Notes: generated by a model not told the origin, from the letters alone. A stretch of 64,000 nt of DNA from Candidatus Poribacteria bacterium (GCA_965223985.1 OZ245030.1:1810964-1874963); one strand, 5' to 3'. Counted from the first letter of the stretch, positions 2,154-63,265 are shown. Numbers and translations: made by a program.

Positions 2154-2190
2154 TTATACCCAATGTGAAGCATCACGCAAAGGACAAATA

Positions 2191-8771: not shown

Positions 8772-8835
8772 CACCTCATTGATTAGGGATTTATTCCTTA
8801 GCGACATAAAAAATATGGAGGACTCGCATAACAAC

Positions 8836-9837: not shown

Positions 9838-9870
9838 GGTTTCTACACCTCCTAATTAGAAAAGAAGAGT

Positions 9871-9946
9871 TCTAGCGAGCGGATAGCGAGTGCGATAGTT
9901 CTGTCGGTTAAGACTATCTGGCTCCTTATTCAGTCGCTCGATCCCC
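9871..9946. repeat. palindromic intergenic repeat, copy 1
   Basis: Imperfect inverted arms agcgagcggatagcgagtgcgatagtt / actatctggctccttattcagtcgctcgatc. The right arm is near-identical to the inner right arm of copy 4. Confidence 0.7.
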
Positions 9947-10013
9947 TACACCATTACCCAATAGTTCCAACACGGCTAACAATCGAAAACCGAACATACG
10001 CAATTAATATCTG

Positions 10014-11018: not shown

Positions 11019-11094
11019 CCAGCGTTGCCTCTTGTAGTGTTGAAAGTTCACAGCATGCGCCAGCGCGTAATTTCGTCGAACACCGAATCCATTG

Positions 11095-12078: not shown

Positions 12079-12103
12079 GGCTCATTACCTCCATCTGTAT
12101 GAG

Positions 12104-12133
12104 TTAGAAAACGGAGCGCTCCGTTTGCGGAGC
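12104..12133 (-). terminator. putative intrinsic terminator after the SDR gene
   Basis: Perfect 18-bp palindrome aaacggagcgctccgttt (12109-12126), followed on the minus strand by ttttct. An alternative ctccg-tttg-cggag hairpin overlaps it. Confidence 0.5.
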
Positions 12134-12181
12134 CGCTTCACACTCGTACTGTCTCACTGCGCATCCAAACTTGTATAGAAT

Positions 12182-13027: not shown

Positions 13028-13120
13028 CGTTTCGGTGCCTTCTGAAGTGAGTCAATAGGGAATTTCCTGTGCATCGAAATACAGAACTCATCAGAACTAC
13101 GTTCTACAGACGACTGATTG

Positions 13121-14131: not shown

Positions 14132-14244
14132 CTGTACACCCTATTTCGCTTGCGTTTGCAAAACGCACGGAAAGCTGCACCAATCCACCCAAGCCGCAGG
14201 GCAACGTTTCCGCCGCGCCCAATACGCTCTAGCACCAGCGGTTT

Positions 14245-15249
14245 TTAATTGTCTCGCTTCACCTGCTTAAGCCATCCCCAAGCTAATGGCCGCTTCTTGA
14301 CTGGCGAAACGGAGAACTCCTGGACAAAGGCAGGATCGAACCAAGTTGGGGACCCGTGGATTACCCCGATGTCCGGCAACATAGGGTGTGCGACTAGCTC
14401 ATCATCCTTGTCTACCTCGGCGATAAAGATGGGGCTACGGCCGATGTAAACGACCTTTTTACTGTCCGGGGACCACGAAACTTCACGGTCGTCCCATTGC
14501 CCTATATCGTCTTTCCGAATCCCGGAAATCTGCTTTACATTCTCTCCGTCAGGATTCATCACGAAGATATCACCGTTTCCATTTCTCTGGGAGGACCAGA
14601 CAATCCACTGACCGTTCGGCGACCACTTCGGTTGGATTTCCTTGCCGCGAGTATTCGTGAGATTCCGCGGATTATTTCCATTCGCTTCCATTACCCAGAT
14701 GTCTCCAAGCGATTTTCCCCGCTTGGTAGCAAAGGCGATTCGTCGACCGTCCGGTGACCATGTGGGTTGAGTATCTGGGGCAGGATCGTTTGTGAGGTTT
14801 TCCAGAACCTCCCCGCCTAGATTAACCACGTGGATTTCAAGGTTTCCATCCCTATCGGACGCGAAGGCGAGCCTTCGACCACCAGGGTGCCAGGTCGGCC
14901 AGCTATCTTCCCCTTCGTGGTTAGTAAGTTTTTTGAGATTTTCTCCATCGCCGTTCATCACGTAGATATCAACGTTGCTCTCCACTTGGCTATGGAAGGC
15001 AATCTGGCTGCCATCCGGCGACCACTCCAACCCCCAGGACAAAGGAGCGCCTTCAATTTTCAGAATTGAGCGTGGATCTCCGCCATCGGGGTCAATAAAC
15101 CAGATGGCATTATTGCCTCCCGAATCGCTGGATACTGCGATGGTTGGTCTGTCAGGCACCTGCGCTTGGATACCCACCACGAACATAACATGAACCAAGA
15201 ACAGTATGCCGATATATACAGCCCACATCAATGCTTTTCGGGATTGCAT
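14245..15249 (-). CDS. secreted TolB-like PD40 beta-propeller protein, paralog 8 of 8
   Basis: Same architecture. Tail SPTWFDPAFVQEFSVSPVKKRPLAWGWLKQ. Confidence 0.85.
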   Translation of the reverse strand: MQSRKALMWAVYIGILFLVHVMFVVGIQAQVPDRPTIAVSSDSGGNNAIWFIDPDGGDPRSILKIEGAPLSWGLEWSPDGSQIAFHSQVESNVDIYVMNGDGENLKKLTNHEGEDSWPTWHPGGRRLAFASDRDGNLEIHVVNLGGEVLENLTNDPAPDTQPTWSPDGRRIAFATKRGKSLGDIWVMEANGNNPRNLTNTRGKEIQPKWSPNGQWIVWSSQRNGNGDIFVMNPDGENVKQISGIRKDDIGQWDDREVSWSPDSKKVVYIGRSPIFIAEVDKDDELVAHPMLPDIGVIHGSPTWFDPAFVQEFSVSPVKKRPLAWGWLKQVKRDN

Positions 15250-18016: not shown

Positions 18017-18865
18017 CTACGCATTGCCGGTTGACACGGCACCTTGTCTATGAAATTCTTTAGGTTTCCACATAATAGGATAACCCGGCGGCCAGCCCTC
18101 GCCGCCCAAAGTCTCTTTGAATTCATCAGTCATCCCGCAGAGCCAGTAAAACATCTCGGCAGTGTCATACCAACCACGGAACTGTTGCCGAAAGTTGGGA
18201 CCATCTACATTGTATATGGGACTATGATCGTGTCCGAAGTCAAAATCCGGTTCGATGATCCAATCCCGCTGCGGCGGCACCGTTCGCCAATAGCAGTATT
18301 TCAGCATATTACGAATACCGCGCGCGGTGGACACCGAGCGACGATGCCATATCGAATAGACGGTGAGGAAAATCGATCCTGCGGGCGCGGCGGTTTTGAC
18401 TCCACCTCGAATTCCCCCGTAGTGCGACATCCAACTTTGCAAGCAAAAGAAAAAATGGGAACCCGGCACCACTTCCGTGGGTCCCATCTCTACTGGTGCA
18501 TCCTGCGGGTAATAGAAAACCTGCAAATGATTTAGCTCAGGAGCATAACGCGAGCCGCCATCGCGGTGCCAATTCTGATCTGGAGCGGGGCATTCGATAC
18601 GATGGTTGGCAATCCCTTTGGGAAGCGCAAAGTTCCTGCCCAGCAATGACCGTACTGCACCCGCTGCCTGGGGATTGAGCAGCACCTCCTCAACAAACCA
18701 TTCCTCTTGCAGAAGGGGGCCTTGTCCATGTGTTTCAATGAATTCAGAGGTTCTCCGGTTAATCTCATCTGGAACGACACCCTTCAACATTACAAAGCCG
18801 TTTTTGCAGAACTCCAGAACCTGTGTGTCGGTCAAGGTGGGTTCACTTTCGTTCGTATTTTTCAA
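18017..18865 (-). CDS. phytanoyl-CoA dioxygenase (PhyH) family Fe(II)/2-oxoglutarate oxygenase
   Basis: N-terminus EPTLTDTQVLEFCKNGFV, HxD motif in NWHRDGGSRY, and distal His in YSIWHRRS. Paralog of 49478, 50882 and 51781. Confidence 0.75.
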   Translation of the reverse strand: MKNTNESEPTLTDTQVLEFCKNGFVMLKGVVPDEINRRTSEFIETHGQGPLLQEEWFVEEVLLNPQAAGAVRSLLGRNFALPKGIANHRIECPAPDQNWHRDGGSRYAPELNHLQVFYYPQDAPVEMGPTEVVPGSHFFFCLQSWMSHYGGIRGGVKTAAPAGSIFLTVYSIWHRRSVSTARGIRNMLKYCYWRTVPPQRDWIIEPDFDFGHDHSPIYNVDGPNFRQQFRGWYDTAEMFYWLCGMTDEFKETLGGEGWPPGYPIMWKPKEFHRQGAVSTGNA

Positions 18866-23722: not shown

Positions 23723-23998
23723 ATGGATATAGGAAGAATTATTGGAACTGTAGTTGCGACTCGAAAGGACCCGAGCTTAATTGGGACGCGGCTTCTAGTT
23801 GTACAGCCTCTGGATGCTAACGGCGACCCTGTAGCCACTCCCCTTATTGCTGTAGACCCACGCGGCGGCGCCGGTTATGGGGACATTATCTATATGGTGA
23901 CGGGTGGCGACGCGATCGCTGTCATTTCAGGACGTCAAATGCCCGTTGACGTTGCTATTGTTGGAATCGTCGATTCCATGACCGTAGCTAGGGACTAG
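23723..23998 (+). CDS. EutN/CcmL-family microcompartment vertex protein (BMC-P) 1
   Basis: 91 aa. G(R)IIGTVVATRK...LLVVQPLD..G.P......AVD..GAG.G..I....G......PVD.AIVGIVD aligns with the EutN/CcmL pattern. Confidence 0.8.
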   Translation: MDIGRIIGTVVATRKDPSLIGTRLLVVQPLDANGDPVATPLIAVDPRGGAGYGDIIYMVTGGDAIAVISGRQMPVDVAIVGIVDSMTVARD

Positions 23999-24000
23999 AG

Positions 24001-24297
24001 ATGTATATTGCAGAGGTAATTGGGAAGATTGTCTCGGTAATTAAGCATTCAGCTTACGAGAATCGAACCCTATTACTTATTCAACCTTTGAATTTAGAAT
24101 CCAAGCCCGTCAAAACCCCAACAATCGCTGTCGATTACGTGGGGGCTGGCGAAGGTGACGTCGTCCTTGTAGGGGCAGGACCGGGCGTTGCTCAGGAGGT
24201 CTTTGGCGTCGAAGATGCACCAATTAGAGAACTTGTAATGGGCATTATCGATCGATTTGATGTAGATGAATTAGATGAAACCAAGCACAAAATGTAG
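24001..24297 (+). CDS. EutN/CcmL-family microcompartment vertex protein (BMC-P) 2
   Basis: 98 aa. VIGKIVSVIKH...LLLIQPL...AVDYVGAGEGDVVLV...GIIDRF. Starts 2 nt after the stop of the first copy. Confidence 0.75.
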   Translation: MYIAEVIGKIVSVIKHSAYENRTLLLIQPLNLESKPVKTPTIAVDYVGAGEGDVVLVGAGPGVAQEVFGVEDAPIRELVMGIIDRFDVDELDETKHKM

Positions 24298-32933: not shown

Positions 32934-35900
32934 TCACTGAAATTCTCCACGCACCGTCACTGAACTCGCTATTGATAAGAAGTCTTGCCCCTCCTCGACA
33001 TGATCGTTGTTATAGCTGAGACCGAGGTTCAGATTCGCACTCAGGCGCGTGCTTAGGTTGTACCGTGTACGTAAAGTTGTCTCGTATCGTTCCGATCTCT
33101 CCTCCCGATTCGCCCCGCGTTTTTCCCGACGGATAACGGTCGAGAAGGTGTTCGTGAGATTCAGATCGTGCTTGAGGGGAATTCGACCGAGGATTGGTAT
33201 TGGAAGTCCCCCTTCTAAACGAAGGCGGTAATCAATGCTGAGATTCGGCGTGATGATTAGTGTAGAACCGCTAATACTGCTGCGTTCCTCATCTCGCATC
33301 GTCATGCGAACACCGAGCGTAGCCTTCGTTGACACCCCCAGCGATTGACTCCAACTGATGGAGGGTTCTTGGGAAACACTTTCGTTAATCGTCGTATTGA
33401 TGTTACTTTGTTCCCGCTGCGTATAGCGATGTCTTAACTGAAAGCTGGAGGTATTGCTGGCATTGAACAGCTTAATGTCTCCTTCATAGCTTGTGGATTG
33501 GTTGTCAGATGAAGTGCTTAGCGATTTCGTAAAACCGTTGTTGCGGGAGATGTTTGTGCCGAGCGACACCCGCGTCCATGGATCGACCGAGGCGCGTAAT
33601 CCGTAGCGATTTCTCTGCCGAGATTGGGTACGTTCCTCTGTGTCATCTGGTAGTTCCAGAATATCTCGAATTGAGGTTCCCGGAGGGAGTCGCTGAAGGG
33701 AGTCTTGCGTATCAAAACTTACATCAGCATTTAACGCAAGACTCTCCATACTTCTACGAAGTAGACTGAATTCTCCTTTACCCTGTTTGCCCTTCCTCTC
33801 CTTAAGTTTGCGCTCTAGTTCAGCTTTGTCTCGGGAAATCCAATCTCCTCTTTGGCTCTCCGCCTCTTCAATCATTTCCATATCAACATCCATACGTTCA
33901 AGTTGTTCGAGCTCGCGTTGTCGTTTCTCTTCGAGTTGTACCTCTTCTTCAAAGCTGTCGAGCGACCCTTGGCTTTCGCCCTCGTCAACCTCTTCGATAT
34001 CCGAATCTCGGAACAGCCATCCAAACCATACCCTTGGGCGCATGCTGAGGCCAAAGCGGATATTCGCGTTGATTCGGGCGTTCTTCTGATCGTGAAACCA
34101 GTTTTCACGAAAACTGATGCGATTGGTGATTGTCGGGCGCATACCAAAAAAATCGCGGTTCAAGCGCGGGTTCAGAGAAAGCCGATGTTCACGGCCGCCA
34201 ATGGTAAACTCCGGTTTGGGTTCGGTTGACTCCGGTTCGGTCGTCATCGTTAGGTCGGTTGTCGTTGGGGTTGTTTGGAACGGCGTTCCAAAACTAGCGG
34301 GACTGAATCCACTTGCGCCTTTGAGATTGTCATCGCGCCTTTCGAGTGTACGGCGAATCTCGTATGTCGGATTCAGGCTAAAACTTGCAACCGGACTGAT
34401 ATTGAGTGAGATCGAACCGCTGTCAAGCTTTTCATCTCGGTTACGACCGTAACCATAACCAGAAGATGAAAAGCTGCTACCGCCGGTTACTGTCGCTGTT
34501 GATGGATCGACCTCTACGTCTTCGTGTCGGTATTGCACATCAAGCCCAAATATTTGGCCGATGCCGTATTGGAAGGTGGAAGTATATAGATCGCTAATCT
34601 CAGTCCCCTGACGTTCGTTCCAGAAATTTTGTCGATTATACGCAAAACCTAAGGCAGGCGAGAATCGGTGCGGATTAAAGCGCGCGGACAAATCGCGGTT
34701 ATGCGTTCTGCTTTTCCCGCTTTGAAAGGAGCTAAACGATCCACGGCGGCTTTCCGTTTCAGATTCCTGTTCGCGGATGGAGTAGGTAATTGGCAGCCAG
34801 CGAAAGAGATGGAGATTGGCATCAACATTGTAGTCGTTACTAGTTGTGCTGAACCCTAAATCCTGTCGGCGTTGACGTCCTGTTTCTCCTGATGAACTTT
34901 CAAAATCTTTGTCTTGTCTCGCAAATCCTCCGCGGACACTGAGAATGGGACCAAGCTCGATGGACATGTTGGCGCGCCGCGCCCATCCCGACCGAACCAA
35001 TGGATTACTCAGGTGGATTTCGTTAACCCAAACTTCTCCACCAACCTCATATTCCGAATCGTTGCGAATGCCGACCAGAATTCCGCCGATGCTCTTAATC
35101 GAGAGTTGAGAACTGTTTGTCCCGCGGATGACAAACCCATCTGGATGACCATCGGTATTGTTTGAATCTGTTTGCTCCTCCATCTCTTCTCCGGGGCTGT
35201 CAGGCGAAACTTGCTCCTGTTGAGCGGGCAAGTCTAAATCTGGGTATTCATTCCGCTTCACGTCCTCCAAATCGATTTCAATCAACTCCCAACCTTCAAA
35301 ATCAATCACGCGAGTATATTCATAAAAGTCATTAAGATTTTCAAAGATATTCACCCCTTCCTCCGGCTGCTGTTTCGGATCATCAAAAGGATTCGATGAA
35401 TAAAAGGATGATCGGTAATTGGTGCGAATGCTCGGCGCCAAGCGCATCACAAATGTCGAGTGACTCTTATCGCCATAGATCCACAACTTGAGTTTGTCAT
35501 GTTTTGAGAAATCTTGTCCCTCACCTTGCCGGAGTCCCCGCAATTTCTGCGAAGTGACCCCGAAAGAACCCGGAAGTAAATTGTAGTTTAACGCCAGCGT
35601 TTGTTCGCGCTGCTCTTGCTGGAAACCAAAGACACTGCTGGATACGAAAGGATGGAGTTTCTTAAATGCCTTGTTGTCTTTAATCTGGTCGTAGGCGTCT
35701 TGATAATCATGAAAATTATAATTGTCTTTCGTGGCGACAGTAAACACTTCTGTTGTGTCGGTAACAACGTTGCCCTGCCGAGTTACAACGCCCTGTTGCC
35801 ATTGGTTTCCTACAAGCTCGATCGAAGCCCACTCGATAGTCCCATTAACAGTGCCGGGGTTATTCTTCCGCAACCAAAAACGGAGGTGTTGCACAAACCC

Positions 35901-38900
35901 GAGGTTTGGGAGACGGTTGCCTTGAGAGGTCGCTTCGCGCAGCGGGATACTCAGGAACGTCCAGCCACTCCGGTTACGCTTTTTAATCCACTCCTCCGGA
36001 ATATCGTTCAACGGGATAGCAATCTCGAGGTAAGCGTCAATTGTGTCCAGTACCCCATCGCCGTTGAGATCTTCAGTATCGAACTCTTTATTGTCCGCGC
36101 CAAATCGCCTCGGTTGAAGCGAAGCATTATAATCCCATCCTTCATCCTCGCCGGTGTCGAGCGATCCATTCGCACTGAATTTTTGAGATGGGAGCAAATT
36201 TTCCAAATCGAGGTCTAGCGTATCAGCTTTCCCGTCCCCGTTCGTATCTTCCAGATTTTTCGGAAGATCCTCGGAATCGAGTCGGTTGTCAAGATCGCTG
36301 TCCTCGCTGACAACGCCGAGATTGAGATATAACGTAACATCATCATCACCACGCACACGCAGCCAAATCTCCAATGCCTCTCGATCGGAAAAGTCAGCCC
36401 CTGAGGCTGAAAGTCCATAAGAAAATCCACCCCACTCTTCAATGACATCCGTGAAATTATAACCGACTTCCATGACAAGGCGCTGCTCCGTCGATAGTGC
36501 GAAGGGGTTGATGGAAGATGCCGGCACGTCACGGTTCCGCATGTAATTGCCGACAGCTTTGGCATCGTCTTTATCTCTTAGAAGGACGCGAAAGAGGGCG
36601 CGATTCTCCGGCGTCAACTCTTCTATGAATGGCGGACTGCAGACGCGCCAACTATGCTTAAAGGTGGAGACGCTTGTCGCTTCTCTCGCGCCTTCCATGC
36701 TATCAATCAATGCGACGCCGACGCTGTTGGGGTTGTTGTGAGAGAATGCTGTCTCGCCACTGAAATCAATCGACAATGGAAAGTGCTTCACGGCAACAAA
36801 CGGCATTGGATTCAACAGCCACGCCAGGTTGAAGCTTCGTCCGAAGCTCGTATTGATGTTAAAAGCTTGCAAACGATTAGGGGCATCGTTCACATCAGGA
36901 ATACGACTCGGTTTTTGCCCTGTGTTTAGAATATAGCCTGTTGAGAGGCTAAATCCTTTTCGGAAAACCGGATTAAAATAGGAACTTGCGCCCGTGTGAA
37001 GTCGTCGTCGGGAACTTCCACCCAAGTTTGAGTAATCGCCGCCAAATCCACCTCCAAAGTTACTACGCCCGAATTGATCGCCAGATCCGCCAAAGGAAGT
37101 TCCCCTCTCCAAGCGATTGCTCTCTTCATGTCTATCAAGCCCGCCGCCTAACCGATTAAATCGATCGGATTGATCCTGTTCATCAGGTGTCTTCGACTTG
37201 GGAACGTAGGCATATTCCAACCAAACTCCAGCGATAGTTTGCTGTAACGCGCTGCCGAAAGGGGTGCGCTCAAATTCAACTTCGATTTCGTCATATTCAT
37301 CGAATTTAGTAAAGAAGCGGAGGCTCCCCACCTCATATATCATTGTGTAATCAATATCACGCTGGAGTTCGCGCCCGTTGAGGCGCACTTTTTCACTGCC
37401 CGGAATCACGAAGAGACCCACGTTATGGGTTTCAGATAGGTAGGCGTAATCGCACACAATTGTATACACCTGATCGGTAGGGCGCGGATTTTCAAGGTAG
37501 ATCTGTTCGTTGTTCAGTTGCTCACGGAACGGGTAGTAAGGGTTAGTTGGATCCTCAATCACAAACGGTCGCAAGGTAGGAAAGATTAAGAGACCGCGAT
37601 CAAAATCAATAAACTCCGGATCGACAACTCCATCCCCGTTCTTGTCTAGTCCGAAGATTTGAATATAAGGAATCGGCCCGTCAGGCGTCTCGAACGCTTC
37701 ACTGCCGCCCTGCTGCAAGATTGCGATTTGATAATCGCGAGGGTTGACATTTCGGTTGCCAAGATTGTACACGCGCCGAGCTTCAGTTCCACGTAAGCTC
37801 TTATCTTTGAGAACGACGTAACCAATTTCTTCGCCCTCTTCATCAATGGAGCCATCGCCGTTTTCATCTTCAAAGACATTCCCCGGCTTACCTACCGCTC
37901 CACCGCCATTCCCAAGATACTCGTAGGCGACGACAATCCGGTAACTCGCCGAAATTGGCGTTAAGAATTCAATCTCTCCCGTTTCATAGTCGATGTTATA
38001 GTCTTGGCCCGGGAATTGGAGGTTGAAATATCCCTGCACTGTCCGCTGTCCGCCTTGGTTATTGCCCGCGACGTTATCATCAATGTAGATTTCTTCACTC
38101 CCTTTTTTGATTTCAGGATAGGAATCGTGAAGTAAACCATCTTCTCCCAGTGAGATTGAGTAGAAACGCTCTTTAACGTAGTTTGCATCGGAAATCTGGA
38201 CACCTCCGCCATATCCCGATCCCGCACGCCTTGATTGCCCACTGAAGCGACGTGTCTCAGAAATGCCCTTACTGCGCGAACCAAACGCTGTCATTTTGAC
38301 ATCACCAAGCGCCGCTACCGCTTCGAGCCCGAATAAATTCCGGTTGACGTTCAAAAAACGGGTATTGGGAAGATTCAGCGTAATATCGCCGAAGGAGAGA
38401 GTTTTGAGGATGCTGTCCTGTCCGCCTTCGTACCAAACGCGAATTTTCTGTTCCTTTGCGCCGCCGAATCCGCCGCTATAGCCGCCGTACCCGCCATAAC
38501 CGCCGCCCAATGCATCGCCAGAATCGCTATAATCGACCTCGACGTGTGTATGTTTCCCGACACGACCGTGTAGACCAACTTGGAGGGTTTGTCGGATGGT
38601 CGGCCCGGAGGCGCGAGGTACACCCCCAAAGCGAGTCGTTCCAAACCCGCCAAATCCACTGCCGTAGCCCCCACCGTAACCGGCACCCCCATAGCCTCCG
38701 CCGAACCCACCCCCGAAATCGTCATAACTATCGTAGCTGTAAGAAGAGGTCAATCCAAGATCGAGTCCAGAACCTAAACCGCCTTGGTATGAACCACCGA
38801 AACGGTTAATGTCGCCCTGACCGAAGTAGTGCGTATGATTCATTTCAACGGTCACCGATTTATGTCCTGTGATCTGGAGGGTAGAATTCAGGGGCAACAC

Positions 38901-39401
38901 TAACCCTTTCTCTTTCTTTCCTGGCTTGCTCTCGCGCATACGGTACAAATCTCGAGGTTCAATCGTAAAGGGCGAATCCTTCCACCGCCGCAACGCTTCA
39001 AGGTATGGCGTCACCATCTCTAGGGTCGGTTCTTTTTTCGGTGTGGATGCGAGTCTTGCGTCTACTTTCCAAGGATCCACCCATGTTTCGCTCGCGGGTT
39101 TATGCTTTCTGAAAAAATCGAGAGCGGACGATGAACTTCCCGAAGATAAATCAAAATCCTGCATCACTGATTCACTAGAACCCTCGCCTTCAACGGTTTG
39201 TGCCGCGCCCTCAGATTTTTCCTCTTTGTCCTTTGACAGCGCCGATCGGAGTTCTAAATAGCGATGTGTTAACGCAGCATCTTTGCGGACAGGCTCCGCG
39301 TAGGCATGGGAGGAAGCGGAGATAACGAAAATCACTCCAAATGCGATAAGCGCGAAGCGTTGAAAGATATGAATCGTGATGGGTTTTACTCTTGTCTTCA
39401 T
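32934..39401 (-). CDS. sprA: giant outer-membrane protein, SprA/Sov-like (putative type IX secretion translocon)
   Basis: 2155 aa with a signal peptide. Blocks recalled from SprA: LFGLEAVAALGDVKMTAFGSRSKG, LNLGVVSEDSDLD, EDLNGDGVLDTIDAYLEIAIPL, SGWTFLSIPL, VQHLRFWL, IEWASIELVGNQW. A long beta-rich C-terminal half ends in ...VTVRGEFQ. The family call is from memory of motifs, not from an HMM. Confidence 0.55.
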   Translation of the reverse strand: MKTRVKPITIHIFQRFALIAFGVIFVISASSHAYAEPVRKDAALTHRYLELRSALSKDKEEKSEGAAQTVEGEGSSESVMQDFDLSSGSSSSALDFFRKHKPASETWVDPWKVDARLASTPKKEPTLEMVTPYLEALRRWKDSPFTIEPRDLYRMRESKPGKKEKGLVLPLNSTLQITGHKSVTVEMNHTHYFGQGDINRFGGSYQGGLGSGLDLGLTSSYSYDSYDDFGGGFGGGYGGAGYGGGYGSGFGGFGTTRFGGVPRASGPTIRQTLQVGLHGRVGKHTHVEVDYSDSGDALGGGYGGYGGYSGGFGGAKEQKIRVWYEGGQDSILKTLSFGDITLNLPNTRFLNVNRNLFGLEAVAALGDVKMTAFGSRSKGISETRRFSGQSRRAGSGYGGGVQISDANYVKERFYSISLGEDGLLHDSYPEIKKGSEEIYIDDNVAGNNQGGQRTVQGYFNLQFPGQDYNIDYETGEIEFLTPISASYRIVVAYEYLGNGGGAVGKPGNVFEDENGDGSIDEEGEEIGYVVLKDKSLRGTEARRVYNLGNRNVNPRDYQIAILQQGGSEAFETPDGPIPYIQIFGLDKNGDGVVDPEFIDFDRGLLIFPTLRPFVIEDPTNPYYPFREQLNNEQIYLENPRPTDQVYTIVCDYAYLSETHNVGLFVIPGSEKVRLNGRELQRDIDYTMIYEVGSLRFFTKFDEYDEIEVEFERTPFGSALQQTIAGVWLEYAYVPKSKTPDEQDQSDRFNRLGGGLDRHEESNRLERGTSFGGSGDQFGRSNFGGGFGGDYSNLGGSSRRRLHTGASSYFNPVFRKGFSLSTGYILNTGQKPSRIPDVNDAPNRLQAFNINTSFGRSFNLAWLLNPMPFVAVKHFPLSIDFSGETAFSHNNPNSVGVALIDSMEGAREATSVSTFKHSWRVCSPPFIEELTPENRALFRVLLRDKDDAKAVGNYMRNRDVPASSINPFALSTEQRLVMEVGYNFTDVIEEWGGFSYGLSASGADFSDREALEIWLRVRGDDDVTLYLNLGVVSEDSDLDNRLDSEDLPKNLEDTNGDGKADTLDLDLENLLPSQKFSANGSLDTGEDEGWDYNASLQPRRFGADNKEFDTEDLNGDGVLDTIDAYLEIAIPLNDIPEEWIKKRNRSGWTFLSIPLREATSQGNRLPNLGFVQHLRFWLRKNNPGTVNGTIEWASIELVGNQWQQGVVTRQGNVVTDTTEVFTVATKDNYNFHDYQDAYDQIKDNKAFKKLHPFVSSSVFGFQQEQREQTLALNYNLLPGSFGVTSQKLRGLRQGEGQDFSKHDKLKLWIYGDKSHSTFVMRLAPSIRTNYRSSFYSSNPFDDPKQQPEEGVNIFENLNDFYEYTRVIDFEGWELIEIDLEDVKRNEYPDLDLPAQQEQVSPDSPGEEMEEQTDSNNTDGHPDGFVIRGTNSSQLSIKSIGGILVGIRNDSEYEVGGEVWVNEIHLSNPLVRSGWARRANMSIELGPILSVRGGFARQDKDFESSSGETGRQRRQDLGFSTTSNDYNVDANLHLFRWLPITYSIREQESETESRRGSFSSFQSGKSRTHNRDLSARFNPHRFSPALGFAYNRQNFWNERQGTEISDLYTSTFQYGIGQIFGLDVQYRHEDVEVDPSTATVTGGSSFSSSGYGYGRNRDEKLDSGSISLNISPVASFSLNPTYEIRRTLERRDDNLKGASGFSPASFGTPFQTTPTTTDLTMTTEPESTEPKPEFTIGGREHRLSLNPRLNRDFFGMRPTITNRISFRENWFHDQKNARINANIRFGLSMRPRVWFGWLFRDSDIEEVDEGESQGSLDSFEEEVQLEEKRQRELEQLERMDVDMEMIEEAESQRGDWISRDKAELERKLKERKGKQGKGEFSLLRRSMESLALNADVSFDTQDSLQRLPPGTSIRDILELPDDTEERTQSRQRNRYGLRASVDPWTRVSLGTNISRNNGFTKSLSTSSDNQSTSYEGDIKLFNASNTSSFQLRHRYTQREQSNINTTINESVSQEPSISWSQSLGVSTKATLGVRMTMRDEERSSISGSTLIITPNLSIDYRLRLEGGLPIPILGRIPLKHDLNLTNTFSTVIRREKRGANREERSERYETTLRTRYNLSTRLSANLNLGLSYNNDHVEEGQDFLSIASSVTVRGEFQ

Positions 39402-39802: not shown

Positions 39803-39970
39803 ATGAGTCGAATCCCAGACAGAGAACTGATTAAACGGAGTATCGATGGTGATAGCCAAGCTTTCTCGACCCTGATAAAGCGCGTTGAGACACCTCTGGT
39901 GAGGCTTGTCAGGTCCGAAATCCCTGACGCTGTGGGATATTGGAAACGGGGAAATAATCCGGACACTTGA
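39803..39970 (+). pseudogene. ECF sigma-factor N-terminal fragment (region 2 only)
   Basis: MSRIPDRELIKRSIDGDSQAFSTLIKRVETPLVRLVRSEI matches the ECF sigma70 region 2 start. The frame then runs 15 more codons to a stop with no region 4. The WD40 frame opens at 39906 in the +1 frame. Confidence 0.6.
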
Positions 39971-40325
39971 GAAAGTTACAGGGCATAATTTGAATATTAG
40001 TTTATTCAGAGGGGATACTGTAGTCTGCTCATCCGAAGGGCACTACCTTGTGATTAGTTTTTTGATAATTAGTGGGCAAGAAACAGTCAGGCTGTGGAAT
40101 GAGGGGAGTATCGCCGACTTCGTCCCAGAAGAGCCTGTAATTTCTGGGGCGGTATCACCGGATGGTCAACTTTTGGCAACTAGCGGGTGGGATAGAATAG
40201 TCACAATCTGGAATGTAGAAACCCAGACAGCCTTTCGTACACTAAATGGCCATACAGGAGAAATCCGCGCGCTCGCGTTTTCGCCCGATGGAAAACTTTT
40301 GGTAAGCGGAGGAGCGGACAATTAG
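39906..40325 (+). CDS. WD40-repeat protein fragment (probably decayed)
   Basis: Begins in mid-blade (LTLWDIGNGEIIRTL). The middle is degenerate, followed by two good blades (SPDGQLLATSGWDRIVTIWN, SPDGKLLVSGGADN). Ends at a TAG that is in frame with the next ORF. Confidence 0.55.
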   Translation: MSGPKSLTLWDIGNGEIIRTLEKVTGHNLNISLFRGDTVVCSSEGHYLVISFLIISGQETVRLWNEGSIADFVPEEPVISGAVSPDGQLLATSGWDRIVTIWNVETQTAFRTLNGHTGEIRALAFSPDGKLLVSGGADN

Positions 40326-40841
40326 ATGGAATTTCCAGAAAGTGTAGCTAGAAACACAGACGGTGAATTTGTGATTAGGATGAAAGACGGTGTAACTCAT
40401 TATTTTACCCCTGATGAGAACTATATTGACAAGACCGCCAAAGTTTGGGAAATCACGACGGGCAAGAATATTGCCACGCTCGAAAACCCATCGCAGGTTA
40501 GAGAGGTAGCATTTTTATATGATGGACACCACGTCGCCACTGCTGCGGACGGACATGTTAATCTGTGGTGTACAAAGGCATGGCAAAATATAGCTACACT
40601 TGATGCCAGAAAGGTTGAATCTCTTGCGTTTTCGCCGGATGGAACCTACCTCGCCACCGGCGGAACTTGGCGGAAACAAACGATTGGACTGTGGGATGTG
40701 AAAACAGGGAACCTCATTGCTGAATTTTCAGGGCATAAGAGTAAAATCAAATCTCTCGCTTTTTCCCCCGATGGTCGTCTGCTTACAAGCGGCAGCTTTG
40801 ACAGCACTATCCTGCTGTGGGATATAACACCGTACTCCTAA
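40326..40841 (+). CDS. WD40-repeat protein fragment (continuation after in-frame TAG)
   Basis: The ATG immediately follows the TAG in the same frame as 39906. Blades KTAKVWEITTGKNI, SPDGTYLATGG...LWDV, SPDGRLLTSGSFDSTILLWDI. Confidence 0.6.
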   Translation: MEFPESVARNTDGEFVIRMKDGVTHYFTPDENYIDKTAKVWEITTGKNIATLENPSQVREVAFLYDGHHVATAADGHVNLWCTKAWQNIATLDARKVESLAFSPDGTYLATGGTWRKQTIGLWDVKTGNLIAEFSGHKSKIKSLAFSPDGRLLTSGSFDSTILLWDITPYS

Positions 40842-40865
40842 CATGGTAAACTTCAAGCCTGCCCG

Positions 40866-42821
40866 GTGTTCAACGGAAATATGCCAATCGACCGCACCCA
40901 TTTTTTGGGAAAAGGGTTTTGGATGGAAAATCAACTCCTACAGACAGCACAAGGTGTAGACATAAACAGTGATGTCACCACTGGGGCATTACCAGAGGGT
41001 GCGATTGCTAGATTGGGGCGAGGATGTGTGCATGATATGGCATTTTCTCCGGCTGGGGAATATCTCGCTATCGGGAGTCGAATAGGACTCTGGTGGTACA
41101 AACTGCCCTCTCTGTATCCTATCGCGCTGTGGGAAACAGAACGGGGGTTGGTTTCCGCTGTTGCCTTTTCTCCCTGTGGCAAGCGGCTTGTCACGGGGAA
41201 TTGGGATGGAGATATTAAAGTGTGGAATGTTCAGCAGGCAGAACTCTTGGTGAAACTAAAGATTTCGAGTCTCACCGACAAAAAGGTGCCCGTGAAACAG
41301 GTTGCTTTCTCCCCCGATGGGCGATGTCTTGCAGTCTCTGGAAGTGAGGATGTTGTTTACGTATGGCGTCTCGAAACCGGCGATCTGATTGCAAATATCA
41401 CCGGAGAAGTTGAAAACAAACCATGCCCATGGTCATCCATTATACCGCTCTCCTTTTCGCCAGACGGTTGTCTCCTAGCCTCCACAAATTTTGATTACAC
41501 CGTTTCGGTATGGAATATGGCGGAAAATGAGAGAATTGCCTGCCTCACCGGACATACGAGCTGGGTGTATTCTGTCTGCTTTTCACCGTGTGGACAGTTT
41601 CTCGCATCAGGTGACCGAGAGGGCACGTTACGGGTGTGGGATTTCATCAGGGGTGTGCAAGAGATGGTGTCCTCTGAATATGCGACGTATCGAGCGATGC
41701 CATTTTATTCACCATCCGGCGCGCTGCTCGCCGCGGGAAGTTATGAGGACAAGGTGGTGATTTGGGATGTGTCTCAACAAGAAAAACTTGGCACCTTTGT
41801 ACATCGTGGGTTCGTCACTACCGCACGTTTTTCGGGCTGCGGGACGCAATTGGCTGTCGCGAGCTCACGCGAGCTAAAAGTGTGGACCGTTGACAACCCT
41901 TCCACAGTTTCGTCTGTCCCTGGACATACCGGCGTTCCCTTTTCAATGACGTTTTCACCAGATGGGAAGACTTTGGCGAGTCTAGAGGGAAGCAATGTCT
42001 TATTTTGGGATGTTGCGTGTAAGCGTTTGCGGGCAACATTCGAAAAAAATACCGGTATCCGTTCGTTTGTGTATTTGGCTTCCGGAAAAATGCTCACTGC
42101 CAGTACGTGCGATACCACTGTCACGGTGTGGGACGTTGGGAAATCGGGTAAGCTGATTGCCGAGTTCACGGAACATCAGAAACGGGTGCGTGTTGTGACG
42201 TTCTCGCCTACAGGCAACCGGATGGCGACTGTAGATGTAGAGGGAAAGTTCTATGTGTGGGATGTCCAGTGTTGCCAAAAGCTCAGTACGCTCAAAGGAG
42301 ATACGGATGGGATTCGGTCTGTGGTGTTTAGCCCGGATGGAAAACAGTTGGTGAGTGCGTCCGAGAACAAAACCGCCCTGCTATGGGATGTTGAGCGCGG
42401 TGAAGAGATCGCCTCTTTAGCAAACAAGGTACCCTCACGCCGCTCAATAGAAACGATAGCGTTTTCACCATGTGGCAATATAATTGCCGCTGGCCTTTAT
42501 AGCGAACTCCGACTGTGGTCGGTCAAAACTCGTGAAACGCTTTACTCAATACAGCCTCCGCAGGGATGTCAGTGGCCCTTTGCATTGGCATTTTCGCCGT
42601 GTGGGCGGTATCTCGCTTCCGGTGCGTGGCACATCCCAAAGATGTCCAAGGAAAAGGTTTCTATCCGTTTATGGGAGGTTGCGAGTGGTGAGAATATAGC
42701 GACCCTTTGGGGGCATCCGACCGACGTTCAGTCGCTCGCCTTTTCGCCAGATGGCGAACTTCTCGCCAGCGGAAGTTTTGACGGGACCATCCTGCTGTGG
42801 GATGTGAGTTCTTACTTGTAA
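40866..42821 (+). CDS. WD40-repeat protein (about 14 blades)
   Basis: 651 aa of tandem units (FSP(D/C)G..LA(S/T)G..D.T(V/I)..W(D/N)V). The C-terminus SGSFDGTILLWDVSSYL parallels that of 40326-40841. Start uncertain. Confidence 0.85.
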   Translation: MFNGNMPIDRTHFLGKGFWMENQLLQTAQGVDINSDVTTGALPEGAIARLGRGCVHDMAFSPAGEYLAIGSRIGLWWYKLPSLYPIALWETERGLVSAVAFSPCGKRLVTGNWDGDIKVWNVQQAELLVKLKISSLTDKKVPVKQVAFSPDGRCLAVSGSEDVVYVWRLETGDLIANITGEVENKPCPWSSIIPLSFSPDGCLLASTNFDYTVSVWNMAENERIACLTGHTSWVYSVCFSPCGQFLASGDREGTLRVWDFIRGVQEMVSSEYATYRAMPFYSPSGALLAAGSYEDKVVIWDVSQQEKLGTFVHRGFVTTARFSGCGTQLAVASSRELKVWTVDNPSTVSSVPGHTGVPFSMTFSPDGKTLASLEGSNVLFWDVACKRLRATFEKNTGIRSFVYLASGKMLTASTCDTTVTVWDVGKSGKLIAEFTEHQKRVRVVTFSPTGNRMATVDVEGKFYVWDVQCCQKLSTLKGDTDGIRSVVFSPDGKQLVSASENKTALLWDVERGEEIASLANKVPSRRSIETIAFSPCGNIIAAGLYSELRLWSVKTRETLYSIQPPQGCQWPFALAFSPCGRYLASGAWHIPKMSKEKVSIRLWEVASGENIATLWGHPTDVQSLAFSPDGELLASGSFDGTILLWDVSSYL

Positions 42822-44091: not shown

Positions 44092-44883
44092 CTAAGTTAG
44101 TGTTTCTTGTTCCAGCGGTAAAACGATAGTGCCGTTACTGCCGGAAATCTCAATGCGCTTCAAGAACCCGGGGTATACGGCGGTCGCGCCTTCAATGACT
44201 CCTAAGGCGCCGTTTTCAAAACGCAGAGCGGTAACGGCAACATCCTCGACCTCAATTCGTTCATGCGCCAATGTACGCGTAAAGGCGCCTGTACAGCTTT
44301 GACAGCTCCCATGAAGTATCGGAAGAGATCGGTGGCATGGATGGACTGATTCATTAGTGCACCACCGCCGTCCAGTTTCCACGTGCCTCGCCATCCGCCA
44401 CTGTCGTAATACGCTTGTGGACGGTACCACTTGATGTAAGCGCCGCCCAAAGTGTAGCGTCCCGAACCGACCAGAATCGATTCTTTTCTTTAACAACTGA
44501 CTTCCTTCAACAAATCGTGAATTAAAGATTGCACATAAGCGCACGCCGGCTTCATTACAAACTTGAATGATTTAATCGCATCGCTCCAATGTGATTTCCA
44601 GAGGTTTTTCAACAATGACATTTTTGCGAGCCTCGGCAGTCGCAACTGCCACGTCCAGATGGACACCGCTAGGCGTACAGACGAGGTCGAGGTCATGGCG
44701 CTTGAGCATTTCATGGTAGTCTGAATAGCCATCAACATGATATTCATCTACAAGTCGTCTGACGTTGTCGGAATTTCGGGAACTGACGGCAACCAATGTT
44801 CCATGCCGTAGCTCTGTGATTGCTGCGGCGTGGACATCCGCTACCATACCACAGCCGATAATTCCAAACCCATAGGTTTTCAT
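44092..44883 (-). pseudogene. Gfo/Idh/MocA-family oxidoreductase, disrupted
   Basis: N-terminus GFGIIGCGMVADVHAAAI and the EKPL motif are intact. There is an in-frame TAA at 44572-44574 (..LERCD*IIQVCNEAGV..). The homologous frame shifts near 44448 (..TLHFG|GAYIKWYRPQAYYDSGGW..) and shifts back near 44288 (..AVKAVQA|FTRTLAHERIEVEDV..). Confidence 0.75.
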
Positions 44884-49477: not shown

Positions 49478-50317
49478 CTAAGCTAAGTCGGCGGGTAGAC
49501 CAGGACAGAATCCTTTCGCTTGTGCCGCGGTTGCTGTTGCGGGCCAAGCGAGTCCGCCAATCCACTCGTAGTTATCCAGTTCCCCGCGCAGCCATAGGTA
49601 CATCCGTGCGGCATCATGGCAGACGCGCGACCAATCACGGCGGGGTTCTGGTGAACCCGTTGCGAAGTCTGCGTTCTCTAATCTGAAAGCCGGATCGATC
49701 ACCCAGTCGCGCGTCGGCGCGGCGGTACGCCAATAGGTATATTTAATCAGATTTCGAATACCTGCGGCTGTGGCAGTAGAAGCACGGTGCCAGATAGAAT
49801 AGACGGTGATAAAAATAGAACCGGCTGGTGCAGCAGTCTTGTGAGCGTCAGCGATTGCATCAAGGTGTCTCATAAAATGGGATGGCATGGACAGATAGTG
49901 GGAGCCGGGCAACAATTCGGTTGGTCCCATCTCAAGAGGCGTCGCTTGAGGGTAGTAAAACAACTGGAGGTAATTGACCTTCGGCACCTGTTGCGAACCG
50001 TCGTCACGATGCCAACCGCCGTTGATCGTTCTAGGGCAATGGACGCGATGGTTGCTGATAGAGAGCGGCAGCCCAAAATCACGACCAAGAAGAGACCTCA
50101 CAGCACCGGCTGCCGGTGCGTTGCACAATACTTGATCGGCAAACCATGCTTCTTTCAGGTAGCCGTTAGGGATACCTTCAGGATGCGCATCGCAAAACGC
50201 TATGACTCGCTTGTTAATCTCATCGGGTACGACTTCCTCCAACATTAGGTAGCCGTACTTACAAAACTCAATAATCTGTTGGTCCGTGAGCGTGGGTTCG
50301 CAGTCATAGGTTTTCAT
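49478..50317 (-). CDS. PhyH-family Fe(II)/2-oxoglutarate dioxygenase
   Basis: CEPTLTDQQIIEFCKYGYL, GGWHRDDGS (HxD), YSIWHRAS. Confidence 0.75.
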   Translation of the reverse strand: MKTYDCEPTLTDQQIIEFCKYGYLMLEEVVPDEINKRVIAFCDAHPEGIPNGYLKEAWFADQVLCNAPAAGAVRSLLGRDFGLPLSISNHRVHCPRTINGGWHRDDGSQQVPKVNYLQLFYYPQATPLEMGPTELLPGSHYLSMPSHFMRHLDAIADAHKTAAPAGSIFITVYSIWHRASTATAAGIRNLIKYTYWRTAAPTRDWVIDPAFRLENADFATGSPEPRRDWSRVCHDAARMYLWLRGELDNYEWIGGLAWPATATAAQAKGFCPGLPADLA

Positions 50318-50372
50318 CTGATATCCATCATGAGGAGCGATCGTCCCAATACCTAATCCCGGTCAATCCAGT

Positions 50373-50732
50373 TTACTCCCATTTTTCTAGGATAAATTCG
50401 CACCCAAGTCCATAGGTACGTGATTCATCCATCAACAACGCCAAGTTGGGAAATTCAACTATCCGCCAACCATCCCGCATCGCCTCAATCGGGGAGTTAT
50501 ATGGCCAATTGTCTTGATCCGGCGGTTCAGTAATCTGACCATCCACAACCATAGTACAACCGTGGGCGCCTGACCCGACGGAAGTCCCGCCGGTTTGAAG
50601 ATAGAGCAAATTTTGGCGTTTGGGTTTCGTCTCATCAAGCGCATCAAGAACCGCGCGCAGGTCTGCTTCGGTAAGCCCACCCTGTCCAAGCGCCTCAATG
50701 CATTGTTCAATTTGCTGTTTTATCTCTTGCAT
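50373..50732 (-). CDS. hypothetical 119-aa protein, paralog of 49017-49394
   Basis: See 49017-49394. Same conserved C-terminal half ending GLGCEFILEKWE. Confidence 0.7.
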   Translation of the reverse strand: MQEIKQQIEQCIEALGQGGLTEADLRAVLDALDETKPKRQNLLYLQTGGTSVGSGAHGCTMVVDGQITEPPDQDNWPYNSPIEAMRDGWRIVEFPNLALLMDESRTYGLGCEFILEKWE

Positions 50733-50834
50733 AAAGCAATTCCTCCAATTTGACTTTTACCTCATCAATACACTCGATTCAGCGAATGTTCAATATAAAA
50801 TCCCATCAGTATCGCATTAGCCATGAGTTAAAAT

Positions 50835-50856
50835 GAGACCGGACCTCCATGGTCTC
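50835..50856 (-). terminator. weak hairpin after PhyH 50882-51700
   Basis: gagacc (50835-50840) pairs with ggtctc (50851-50856) around a 10-nt loop, followed on the minus strand by atttta. The U-tract is poor. Confidence 0.3.
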
Positions 50857-50881
50857 AAGCACTTCAGAAGTCTAGATTAGG

Positions 50882-51700
50882 TTACCATTGTGGCGGTCCA
50901 GATGGAAACCCATATGATTTATGAATCTGGCTCGCTTGTGAACCCGAATAGGGCCATGATTGACCACCCATTGTGCGAAATTCGTCCGCTTTGCCGCATA
51001 GCCAGTAGAGCTTACGCGCTACGAGCTTGGCAGTCCCATGCCCACCATAGTTCGCCGTGTGCAAGTCAAAGTCTGGCTCGATAATCCAATCCCGCTGGGG
51101 TGGCACTGTTCGCCAGTAACTCCACTTCAACATATTACGCATCCCCTCGGCGGTTGACTCACTCTTGCGGTGTAGAATTGAATACATCGTGATGAAAACA
51201 GTACCCGCAGAGGAGTCCATCAGGCGTCCTCCGCGCCATTCTATGCCTTGACCTGTAGGGGCTAAATGTGAACCAAGCAATATTTCAGTCGGTCCCATCT
51301 CTGGCGTAACGTCCTGCGGATAATAGAACACCTGTAGATAATTTACTTCGGGATCGAATACCGAGTCGCCATCGTGATGCCACCCCTGTGCTGGAGCAGG
51401 ACACTTGGCTCGATGATTACTCATGAGCACCGGCATACCGACGTTTCTGCCAAGTATTGACCTCACAGCACCTGCTACCTGCGAATGAAGCAGCACATTT
51501 TCGAGAAACCAATCCTCAAGCATGATTGTGCTTGGTTCTCCGGTCGGATGTCCGTCTAGGTATGCATATGTTTGCTGATTAATTTTGTCTGGAACGACAC
51601 CTTCCAGCACGATGGCGCCGTGCTTACAGAACTCTAACACCTGAGTGTCCGTCAGTGTAGGATTACAATCAAAAGTTCTGCTCTCTTTATCTAGCTTCAT
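50882..51700 (-). CDS. PhyH-family Fe(II)/2-oxoglutarate dioxygenase
   Basis: CNPTLTDTQVLEFCKHGAI, GWHHDGDS (HxD), YSILHRKS. Confidence 0.75.
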   Translation of the reverse strand: MKLDKESRTFDCNPTLTDTQVLEFCKHGAIVLEGVVPDKINQQTYAYLDGHPTGEPSTIMLEDWFLENVLLHSQVAGAVRSILGRNVGMPVLMSNHRAKCPAPAQGWHHDGDSVFDPEVNYLQVFYYPQDVTPEMGPTEILLGSHLAPTGQGIEWRGGRLMDSSAGTVFITMYSILHRKSESTAEGMRNMLKWSYWRTVPPQRDWIIEPDFDLHTANYGGHGTAKLVARKLYWLCGKADEFRTMGGQSWPYSGSQASQIHKSYGFPSGPPQW

Positions 51701-51780
51701 TGTGGACTTACCTCCAATTCTCTATGATAAACTCATACCTAAGGTTCTCGGGGACGCCATTCATCTGTCAGCCTCACGCC

Positions 51781-52671
51781 CTAATTTGTCCCTTTGTTGG
51801 GTATTGGGCTTATCGGAAATCTGTAGAACCCTTGGGGCGGATATATCTGTGCCCCGGGTCGAGGCGGCGGGTAACCCATGGGCCAATCTGCACCGCCCAA
51901 CAAATCCTGGAGTATACTCATATCCCCACACAACCAGCAAAACATCGCCGCGGCGTCATACCAATCTCGGAATTGCTGCCGGGGGATGCCGCCGAAGCTA
52001 TATTGAGCCATAGCGAAATCAAAGTCCGGTTCGGCGATCCAATCCCGCTGGGGTGGCACCGTTCGCCAGTAGCAGTATTTCAACATATTGCGGAGGCCAT
52101 GCGCAGTGGACTCAGAACGACGATGCCAGATGGGGTAAGCTGTTATGAAAATAGTACCAGCTGGTGAAGCCGTGCGAAGTCCCGATCGAATGTTGCCGTA
52201 GTGTTCCATCCAACTCTGCAAGCAAAAGAGGAAATGGGAGCCTGGTACAATCTCCGTAGGACCAAGCTCTACAGGGGTATCCTGTGGGTAATAAAATACC
52301 TGCAAATGATTTGTTTCCGAGCCATAGCGTGAACCGCCATCCCGGTGCCAGCCCTGCGCCGGTGCCGGACATTGCATCCGATGATTAGCCACTCCGACCG
52401 GAAAACCAAAGTCCTCGCCTAGAAGCGACCGTACTGCACCTGCCGCCTGCGGATTGAGAAGCACGTTCTCAATGAACCAATCCTCCTGTCGAAGAGGTTC
52501 CTGTCCATGCTTTTCAATGAATTCAGAAACTCTCCGGTTGATTTCGTTCGGAACGACACCTTCGTACACCAGGTAACCCTGTTTGCAAAATTCGACAACT
52601 TGTGTGTCATTCAGTGTAGGTTCACAGTTAGCTGTTTGTAATTTCTTCTTCCCAATTTTCACCTGCTGCAT
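51781..52671 (-). CDS. PhyH-family Fe(II)/2-oxoglutarate dioxygenase
   Basis: CEPTLNDTQVVEFCKQGYL, GWHRDGGSRY, YPIWHRRS. Start set at MQQVKIG, 9 nt after GGAGA. The ORF is open to 52713. Confidence 0.75.
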   Translation of the reverse strand: MQQVKIGKKKLQTANCEPTLNDTQVVEFCKQGYLVYEGVVPNEINRRVSEFIEKHGQEPLRQEDWFIENVLLNPQAAGAVRSLLGEDFGFPVGVANHRMQCPAPAQGWHRDGGSRYGSETNHLQVFYYPQDTPVELGPTEIVPGSHFLFCLQSWMEHYGNIRSGLRTASPAGTIFITAYPIWHRRSESTAHGLRNMLKYCYWRTVPPQRDWIAEPDFDFAMAQYSFGGIPRQQFRDWYDAAAMFCWLCGDMSILQDLLGGADWPMGYPPPRPGAQIYPPQGFYRFPISPIPNKGTN

Positions 52672-52910
52672 TACTAGCATTCTCCATTTCAAACGGGAAA
52701 AATTCTCACGCAACTCAAATGCGGTATTATACTATATATTGAGTCATACTGCAACCAATAAGAAGGACAATGCCTGAGATTCCCCTAACCTCAGGTATTG
52801 TGTAAAATTTTATCGGTCATGTCCTTTCTACACATCACCGGTAAATTTGCCATCATAAGCGAGAGCAATCCCAACGAATAGGAGGCATTCAGTTGCACAA
52901 CGGCTCACAT

Positions 52911-58705: not shown

Positions 58706-58790
58706 GTTCTATTCCACTTCCGTTGTATTTGACTTATTAGGAAATGCAGCTACTGAGGTTAATTCCTTATCTACAATCAAGTTCCATGCC

Positions 58791-61259
<2,469 letters not shown>

Positions 61260-61352
61260 TCAGTCGATATCTATTTATGATTCGGGAAGGAAATTGATAA
61301 TTCGAGAAGAATACAGCTTCACTTTCTGATTCTAAGCAGATAAACTCTGTCA

Positions 61353-63231: not shown

Positions 63232-63265
63232 TATTTTATGAGGAGCTATGTATCAGAATTTAGGA

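Follow-up and report, generated by a model that had tools for sequence, protein, structure and literature searches.

A divergent SprA/Sov-type outer-membrane protein of Candidatus Poribacteria as a candidate translocon for type IX-like secretion

We analyzed a 64,000-nucleotide stretch of DNA from a sponge-associated Candidatus Poribacteria bacterium (GCA_965223985.1 OZ245030.1:1810964-1874963), referred to here as the window, which carries a gene for a giant protein resembling SprA/Sov, the outer-membrane translocon of the T9SS (type IX secretion system). The gene is a single uninterrupted open reading frame (ORF) that begins with ATG on the minus strand and encodes 2155 amino acids (aa); its position, 32934..39401, and its length are exactly those given in a preliminary description of the window. 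This interval, stop codon included, was assigned as a complete SprA/Sov-like outer-membrane protein gene from the ORF itself, the TIGR04189 family model, profile comparison (hhalign), structure comparison (Foldseek) and the ratio of nonsynonymous to synonymous substitution rates (dN/dS). Both flanking genes, one for a major facilitator superfamily (MFS) transporter (end at 32744) and one for a WD40 protein (start at 39906), lie on the opposite strand, and the SprA-like gene is therefore a single-gene (monocistronic) unit. Promoter and terminator scans around it performed no better than shuffled controls.

All features of the protein given below lie on the minus strand. Its N-terminus reads MKTRVKPITIHIFQRFALIAFGVIFVISASSHAYA, followed by EP, and by inspection it looks like a Sec signal peptide (39297..39401; aa 1-35), with a basic n-region, a hydrophobic core at aa 16-29 and an AYA/E site; residues 8-32 were modelled as a helix by AlphaFold. 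Between the first predicted barrel strands lies a low-complexity loop rich in G, Y, S and F (38607..38819; aa 195-265), and two shorter loops of the same kind follow at 38457-38519 (aa 295-315) and 37002-37124 (aa 760-800). These loops have an entropy of <3 bits, a G+Y+S+F content above 60-80% and a predicted local distance difference test (pLDDT) score of <50, and their character is kept in the family consensus. A folded beta-rich insert domain, modelled with a pLDDT of ~80-88, occupies 37242..38204 (aa 400-720) and aligns with a conserved block of SprA (columns ~320-740). Most of the predicted barrel wall is formed by a C-terminal run of ~27 long antiparallel strands (32937..35084; aa ~1440-2155), as assigned by DSSP from a model with a pLDDT of mostly 70-90. 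This run is interrupted by a highly charged helical insertion (33741..34037; aa ~1789-1887) in which E, K, R, D and Q make up ~60% of residues and helices span positions 834-932 of the modelled fragment; the insertion falls outside the SprA-aligned segment, since the hhalign alignment ends earlier. The protein closes with the terminal strand SVTVRGEFQ (32937..32963; aa 2147-2155), whose penultimate residue is aromatic, and the ending VRGEFQ is conserved across the family consensus. The last strand of outer-membrane proteins commonly serves as a beta-signal for insertion by the beta-barrel assembly machinery (BAM), and by analogy the terminal strand of the SprA-like protein is likely to do so as well. 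Thus, the apparent signal peptide, the long beta-rich C-terminal half and its aromatic-containing end, all of which had been proposed in the preliminary description, were recovered here.

Judged by sequence comparison, the poribacterial protein is a genuine but very remote homologue of SprA, because a curated family model, a family profile, profile-profile alignment and a transitive link all lead to the same family. First, TIGR04189 ("T9SS outer membrane translocon Sov/SprA") matched the protein over five stretches with an E-value of 3.1e-46 and 157.3 bits. The top-scoring stretch (34779..36092; aa 1104-1541, model positions 1084-1502) includes the motifs EDLNGDG, GWTFLSIPL, HLRFWL and IELVGNQW together with a sub-threshold match to SprA_N at aa 1437-1537. 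Six sequence blocks had been quoted earlier as reminiscent of SprA/Sov. Five match exactly, all within aa 1026-1201: LNLGVVSEDSDLD at aa 1026-1038, EDLNGDGVLDTIDAYLEIAIPL at aa 1110-1131, GWTFLSIPL at aa 1146-1154, HLRFWL at aa 1172-1177 and IELVGNQW at aa 1194-1201. LFGLEAVAALGDVKMTAFGSRSKG, at aa 356-379, corresponds to the sixth block but has a spacer of 6 residues rather than the 3 that had been quoted.

Second, 75 relatives were retrieved from a database of 5.8 billion proteins. Almost all have lengths of 2100-2350 aa, and those that are named come from Candidatus Poribacteria, with the labels "hypothetical protein" or "LysM ... protein". An 18-member family profile reached Bacteroidota "cell surface protein SprA" in the same database at an E-value of ~1e-39, with the intermediates P0075 and P0077-P0080 lying between the poribacterial family and Bacteroidota SprA. 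Third, hhalign comparison of the poribacterial family with eleven canonical SprA sequences gave a probability of 100% and an E-value of 6.3e-52 over 1216 collinear columns with 21% identity (query 203-1607 against template columns 184-1776 of 2473); in the window, the segment collinear with canonical Bacteroidota SprA lies at 34332..38624 (aa ~260-1690, end approximate). Finally, the family profile matched P0080 with an E-value of 7.9e-56, and P0080 in turn matched Flavobacterium johnsoniae SprA (6H3I_A) with an E-value of 2.6e-63. The TIGR04189 scores form a graded series, from 2649 bits for a canonical SprA (P0099) through 675 for P0080 and 461 for P0077 to 157 for the poribacterial protein and 116 for P0074. 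A match of this kind is far beyond chance.

An exhaustive phmmer search with aa 956-2155 against 1.84 billion representatives returned 298, 152 and 30 matches at E-value thresholds of 1e-3, 1e-10 and 1e-30, respectively. Many of these are SprA-like proteins of 1300-2100 aa with ~30% identity, which points to a broad, poorly described radiation of shorter SprA-like sequences.

The predicted structure agrees with this assignment. The two halves of the protein were modelled separately with AlphaFold, each with a 52-sequence alignment. The model of the C-terminal half (aa 956-2155; mean pLDDT 70) shows folded domains and then the ~27 long strands, which also match other SprA-like proteins in the phmmer search. 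Foldseek comparison of this half with the PDB placed four SprA chains solved by cryo-EM at the top (8gl8_A, 8gl6_A, 6h3j_A and 6h3i_A; E-values of 1.1e-26 to 2.2e-20), followed by MtrB (1.9e-7) and LptD (~3e-5), with SlpA also listed among matches in the range of 1e-7 to 1e-4. The N-terminal half (aa 1-1100) was modelled with a mean pLDDT of 57, a low confidence that reflects the disordered G/Y-rich loops; it contains the confidently modelled domain at aa 400-720 and ~13 long strands, so that ~13 plus ~27 long strands are predicted over the two half-models. For this half only SprA was matched strongly (E-values of 8e-25 to 2e-15), and the next match had an E-value of 3.5e-3. SprA chains were thus the only strong PDB matches for both halves, and both models have a SprA-like fold. 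Family models, profile comparison and predicted fold together bear out the earlier suggestion of a divergent SprA/Sov-type protein.

The gene is conserved among Poribacteria under purifying selection. When a single representative genome of each GTDB species was scanned, 280 relatives were found, and our statements about loci rest on the best 80 of these, all of which are in metagenome-assembled genomes (MAGs) of Poribacteria, many of them closed chromosomes. The closest among the relatives listed (OZ240245.1) is 93% identical, and dN/dS relative to the closest homologue (L001) was 0.16. Most of the 80 loci encode full-length homologues, the ORF in the window is intact over 6.5 kb, and precomputed PF14349 (SprA_N) hits are already present on many poribacterial homologues in databases. 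Poribacteria are a candidate phylum that lies outside the Planctomycetes-Verrucomicrobia-Chlamydiae (PVC) and Fibrobacteres-Chlorobi-Bacteroidetes (FCB) groups and groups with Hydrogenedentes and Aerophobetes. The neighbourhood had been noted as not typical of Bacteroidota, and the source indeed belongs to Candidatus Poribacteria. The T9SS is described in the literature as restricted to Bacteroidetes/FCB, a range that is not matched by the named homologues and best 80 loci described here, all of Candidatus Poribacteria.

Proteins that could serve as cargo were found in the same phylum. Kamke et al. (2014; PMC3909097) reported the TIGR04183 Por sorting domain on many poribacterial eukaryote-like proteins, especially those with WD40 repeats and also those with LRR, and such repeat proteins have been proposed as mediators of contact with the sponge host; their Table S9 of proteins from single-cell genomes mentions TIGR04183 59 times. 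Detection of T9SS-type C-terminal domains (CTDs) in our loci required a hidden Markov model (HMM) seeded from the CTDs of locus L083, followed by jackhmmer. The HMM revealed, in MAG MSPOR6 (L016) and ~6 kb from the SprA-like gene, an 849-aa WD40-dockerin-CTD protein whose tail passes the thresholds of TIGR04183 (35.3 versus 23 bits), PF18962 (28.5 versus 27) and also PF13860. With jackhmmer, a second WD40-dockerin-CTD gene and a PQQ-dehydrogenase-like-CTD gene were found in poribacterial loci (L016 and L049), and a cohesin-CTD protein is present in another poribacterial sequence (L089 16762-19017). At E <= 1e-6, a profile built from three poribacterial CTDs matched 4264 protein clusters. Of the 120 matches listed, few carry an organism name, and all of these are from Poribacteria, including a "T9SS type A sorting domain-containing protein". 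TIGR04183 had no match in the WD40 genes of the window or in nine neighbours in other loci, and BLAST of C-terminal 110-mers for a shared C-terminal module returned only paralogue families.

Two further observations concern these CTD proteins. The T9SS-type CTD ends both the cohesin protein and the WD40-dockerin proteins (L016 21994-24543 and 24556-26229), which suggests, at the level of sequence, that a cohesin-dockerin assembly might be displayed on the poribacterial cell surface. Furthermore, the top 120 CTD-profile matches are all ORFs of 92-163 aa. We rejected the idea that such short "CTD-only" ORFs are stand-alone minigenes: in-frame stops or local frameshifts have divided WD40-dockerin-CTD genes into several ORFs, and the short ORFs correspond to the tails of these genes, which explains the short matches. 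Genes split in this way occur in closed long-read poribacterial genomes (L086 6837-8330; L087 4962-8327 and 8407-12193), e.g. with a stop at an expected Trp codon, and the splitting may reflect pseudogenisation, assembly error or recoding.

The gene neighbourhood of the SprA-like gene is clade-specific, with no conserved gene order over the 80 poribacterial loci. In the window, the neighbours include genes for FolD, a GT4 glycosyltransferase, a thiamin pyrophosphokinase-like protein, the MFS transporter, WD40 proteins, ADH, GFO/IDH and tetratricopeptide-repeat (TPR) proteins, an ABC ATPase and PhyH paralogues, among others. Conserved neighbours in the poribacterial loci, i.e., the GFO/IDH oxidoreductase, Rpe, APRT, SecD, HisB/HisC, NuoM, PD40 and FG-GAP proteins, were considered as functional partners and rejected as housekeeping genes. 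A small secreted LamG/Laminin_G_3-like protein (~256 aa) is encoded directly upstream of the SprA-like gene in ~35 poribacterial loci of one large clade (e.g. L070 6394-7164); it also adjoins WD40-CTD genes in L087 and is absent from the window. In a canonical Bacteroidota locus, the gene order is ruvA-sprA, and a T9SS plug gene lies at a distance of 7 kb.

The PhyH paralogues, the load of WD40, TPR and PD40 genes and the two bacterial-microcompartment vertex genes that had been described for the neighbourhood are all present. Three WD40 ORFs of 139, 171 and 651 aa share one frame at 39906-42821 on the plus strand and are split by TAG at 40323-40325 and TAA at 40839-40841; the first stops in the middle of a WD40 repeat, none of the three carries a T9SS CTD, and together they look like a broken gene or tandem fragments. 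A GFO/IDH/MocA oxidoreductase gene on the minus strand (44092-44883) is also split in two, with its C-terminal domain at 44092-44544 and its Rossmann domain at 44572-44883, and is apparently another disrupted gene. Eight tandem paralogues of a PD40/TolB-like beta-propeller protein (320-365 aa) lie at 5668-15249 on the minus strand, interrupted by a short-chain dehydrogenase gene at 12182-13027. The two adjacent EutN/CcmL vertex genes occupy 23723-24297 on the plus strand, with a rhomboid protease gene after them; genes for shell hexamers were not seen in the vicinity. On the minus strand, 18017-18865 and 49478-52713 contain four paralogues of the PhyH (phytanoyl-CoA dioxygenase-like) family, and in other poribacterial loci further PhyH genes (cluster 20) are close to the homologue. 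At one end of the window, a terminase-large-subunit-like ORF (2588-4465) adjoins small unannotated ORFs in a region (1-4465) where the G+C content dips to 45%, a possible prophage remnant. At the other end, gyrA, gyrB, dciA, recF and dnaN stand in a row on the minus strand (56255-63964), and therefore the window adjoins the chromosomal replication-origin region.

Altogether, we think it probable that the SprA-like protein corresponds in Poribacteria to the T9SS translocon and exports CTD-tagged proteins, with transport as the inferred step. A precedent is found outside Poribacteria, where the SprA-like gene of P0080 (L083) lies among genes for LpxC/LpxA and four or five Por_Secre_tail proteins. 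In the mechanism that we propose, the precursor would be exported by Sec via its N-terminal signal peptide, and BAM would place it in the outer membrane through the conserved C-terminal RGEFQ strand, where a very large barrel of ~36 strands, capped by folded insert domains, would form. Periplasmic proteins with a type A CTD would then cross this barrel to the cell surface, and the poribacterial cargo would include WD40-dockerin-CTD, cohesin-CTD and PQQ-dehydrogenase-like-CTD proteins. Such a pathway would also have an energy source, partners (a PorV-like shuttle, a plug and a motor or hub), a step of CTD removal or surface anchoring, and presumably cargo in the source genome itself.

Several findings weigh against the assignment as a T9SS translocon. 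With regard to the protein, both SprA models gave significant E-values and stayed under their curated cutoffs: the TIGR04189 score of 157.3 bits did not reach the 200-bit equivalog cutoff, and the match to Pfam SprA_N (PF14349; aa 1437-1537, E-value 2.5e-5) scored 23.8 bits versus a gathering score of 27. SprA was not retrieved from PDB sequences by phmmer with the protein or by hmmsearch with the 18-sequence profile. The PDB set searched did contain SprA, and the profile missed 6H3I_A even at E <= 1; the same profile scored a Paludibacteraceae SprA at 153 bits, and the miss may be a filter effect. The Foldseek TM-scores were low (0.22-0.40) for the separately modelled halves, as would be expected for open half-barrels. 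With regard to partners, comparison of ~50 ORFs of the window with Pfam and/or NCBIfam found no T9SS component, the core machinery of GldK/L/M/N (PorK/L/M/N), PorV, SprE/PorW, SprT/PorT, PorU/PorZ/PorQ and Plug included, and no T9SS CTD in the 64 kb, in line with the preliminary description, and the recurrent neighbour clusters inspected over the 80 poribacterial loci were all housekeeping or otherwise not T9SS-related. Kamke et al. (PMC3909097) likewise reported that Por structural genes were absent from the six single-cell genomes studied, all of them incomplete, and left the secretion pathway open. With regard to cargo, type A CTD proteins were seen at the level of the phylum, CTD genes occur in just 2 of the 80 poribacterial loci (L016 and L049), and a six-frame jackhmmer search of the 64-kb window of the source genome found none. 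Moreover, the TIGR04183/FlgD_ig-type domain has an Ig-like fold that could serve other purposes.

The strongest alternative is a SprA-family barrel that acts outside a classical T9SS, either as an envelope- or lipopolysaccharide (LPS)-linked outer-membrane biogenesis factor or as a general export pore, with the CTD-like domains being Ig-like modules that are not routed through the barrel. The lack of partner genes in the window and among the neighbour clusters inspected, the absence of Por structural genes from the single-cell genomes and the TIGR04189 score under the equivalog cutoff all favor it, as does the gene context of distant SprA-like relatives outside Poribacteria: the genes of P0075, P0077 and P0074 (loci L081, L082 and L085) are divergent to lptF-lptG in at least two lineages, that of P0079 (L084) is followed by a GT9 heptosyltransferase gene, and that of P0080 lies beside LpxC/LpxA. 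The lptF-lptG link found in these distant relatives is, however, absent from all 80 poribacterial loci, and we rejected it for the poribacterial family. In addition, the lptFG-linked P0077 passes the SprA equivalog cutoff with its 461 bits, and therefore this linkage is no argument against T9SS function. Furthermore, T9SS translocation is the sole experimentally known role of the SprA fold, and poribacterial type A CTD proteins with scores above curated thresholds, together with thousands of clusters that match the CTD profile, need an export route. We therefore consider a role outside the T9SS unlikely.

The remaining alternative, i.e., another giant outer-membrane protein whose likeness to SprA is only superficial (e.g. 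an adhesin, an S-layer anchor or a barrel of the LptD or MtrB type), or a decaying relic, is essentially excluded: Foldseek does list MtrB, LptD and SlpA for the C-terminal half (E-values of 1e-7 to 1e-4), and stops or frameshifts disrupt several other genes in the window and in related genomes, but SprA matches at least 13 orders of magnitude better than other barrels and is the sole strong match for the N-terminal half, profile homology is collinear over the 1216 columns, and an intact 6.5-kb ORF, full-length homologues in most of the loci and the dN/dS of 0.16 argue against decay.

A further and rather doubtful extension is that Poribacteria, and perhaps wider uncultured non-FCB lineages with SprA-like proteins of 1500-2200 aa, might export CTD-tagged WD40, cohesin and dockerin surface proteins through a divergent SprA barrel, in a type IX-like pathway that is reduced or powered in another way and lacks the canonical GldKLMN/PorKLMN motor-and-ring. 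If true, such a motor-less pathway would represent either an ancestral, simpler T9SS or one with a new energising module.

The fold and the family are already known, and the poribacterial protein is a very divergent new member; our literature search found no paper linking Poribacteria with SprA or with T9SS structural genes. The SprA-like gene, present in all 80 poribacterial loci listed, under purifying selection and unnamed by curated models, is thus a concrete candidate for the missing export route of poribacterial CTD proteins, an open question since 2014, and it would extend T9SS-type machinery beyond the FCB group. It also extends the known sequence range of SprA, which helps to define the indispensable parts of the translocon, and it makes testable the question of whether symbiosis-related repeat proteins reach the cell surface via a SprA-like barrel.

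Among known systems, LptD (26 strands), MtrB and Deinococcus SlpA are likewise large antiparallel beta-barrels with weak Foldseek matches (E-values of 2e-7 to 1e-4), but they show no sequence homology, are much smaller and leave the N-terminal half unmatched. The proteins P0080, P0079, P0077, P0075 and P0074, from uncultured bacteria outside Bacteroidota, are closer: they are of similar size (1750-2320 aa), match the same profile with 22-25% identity to the poribacterial family, form the graded TIGR04189 series with it and, in the case of P0080, sit beside Por_Secre_tail cargo genes. Several of them adjoin lptF-lptG or other LPS genes, whereas the poribacterial genes never do.

F. johnsoniae SprA (PDB 6H3I, 6H3J, 8GL6 and 8GL8), whose barrel has 36 strands, and Porphyromonas gingivalis Sov differ from the poribacterial protein in several respects. 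Identity is ~21% over the aligned columns, the poribacterial protein is 250-330 aa shorter than canonical SprA (2403-2490 aa), and its last ~450 residues are unaligned to SprA by hhalign. Unlike canonical SprA, it has three G/Y/S/F-rich low-complexity loops and the charged helical insertion of ~100 aa. Its TIGR04189 score is 157 versus 2649 bits, and curated rules therefore keep the label "hypothetical protein". In contrast to SprA/Sov hosts, its lineage lies outside Bacteroidota/FCB, and no T9SS partner genes were found in the loci inspected. The likeness to SprA and Sov is nevertheless broad: all are secreted giant outer-membrane proteins of >2000 aa, with a beta-barrel that is predicted in the poribacterial case, the poribacterial protein shares with SprA/Sov ~1200 collinear columns and the blocks LFG...SRSKG and EDLNGDG...IPL, its best and sole strong structural match over both halves is SprA, and its lineage encodes CTD-type cargo.

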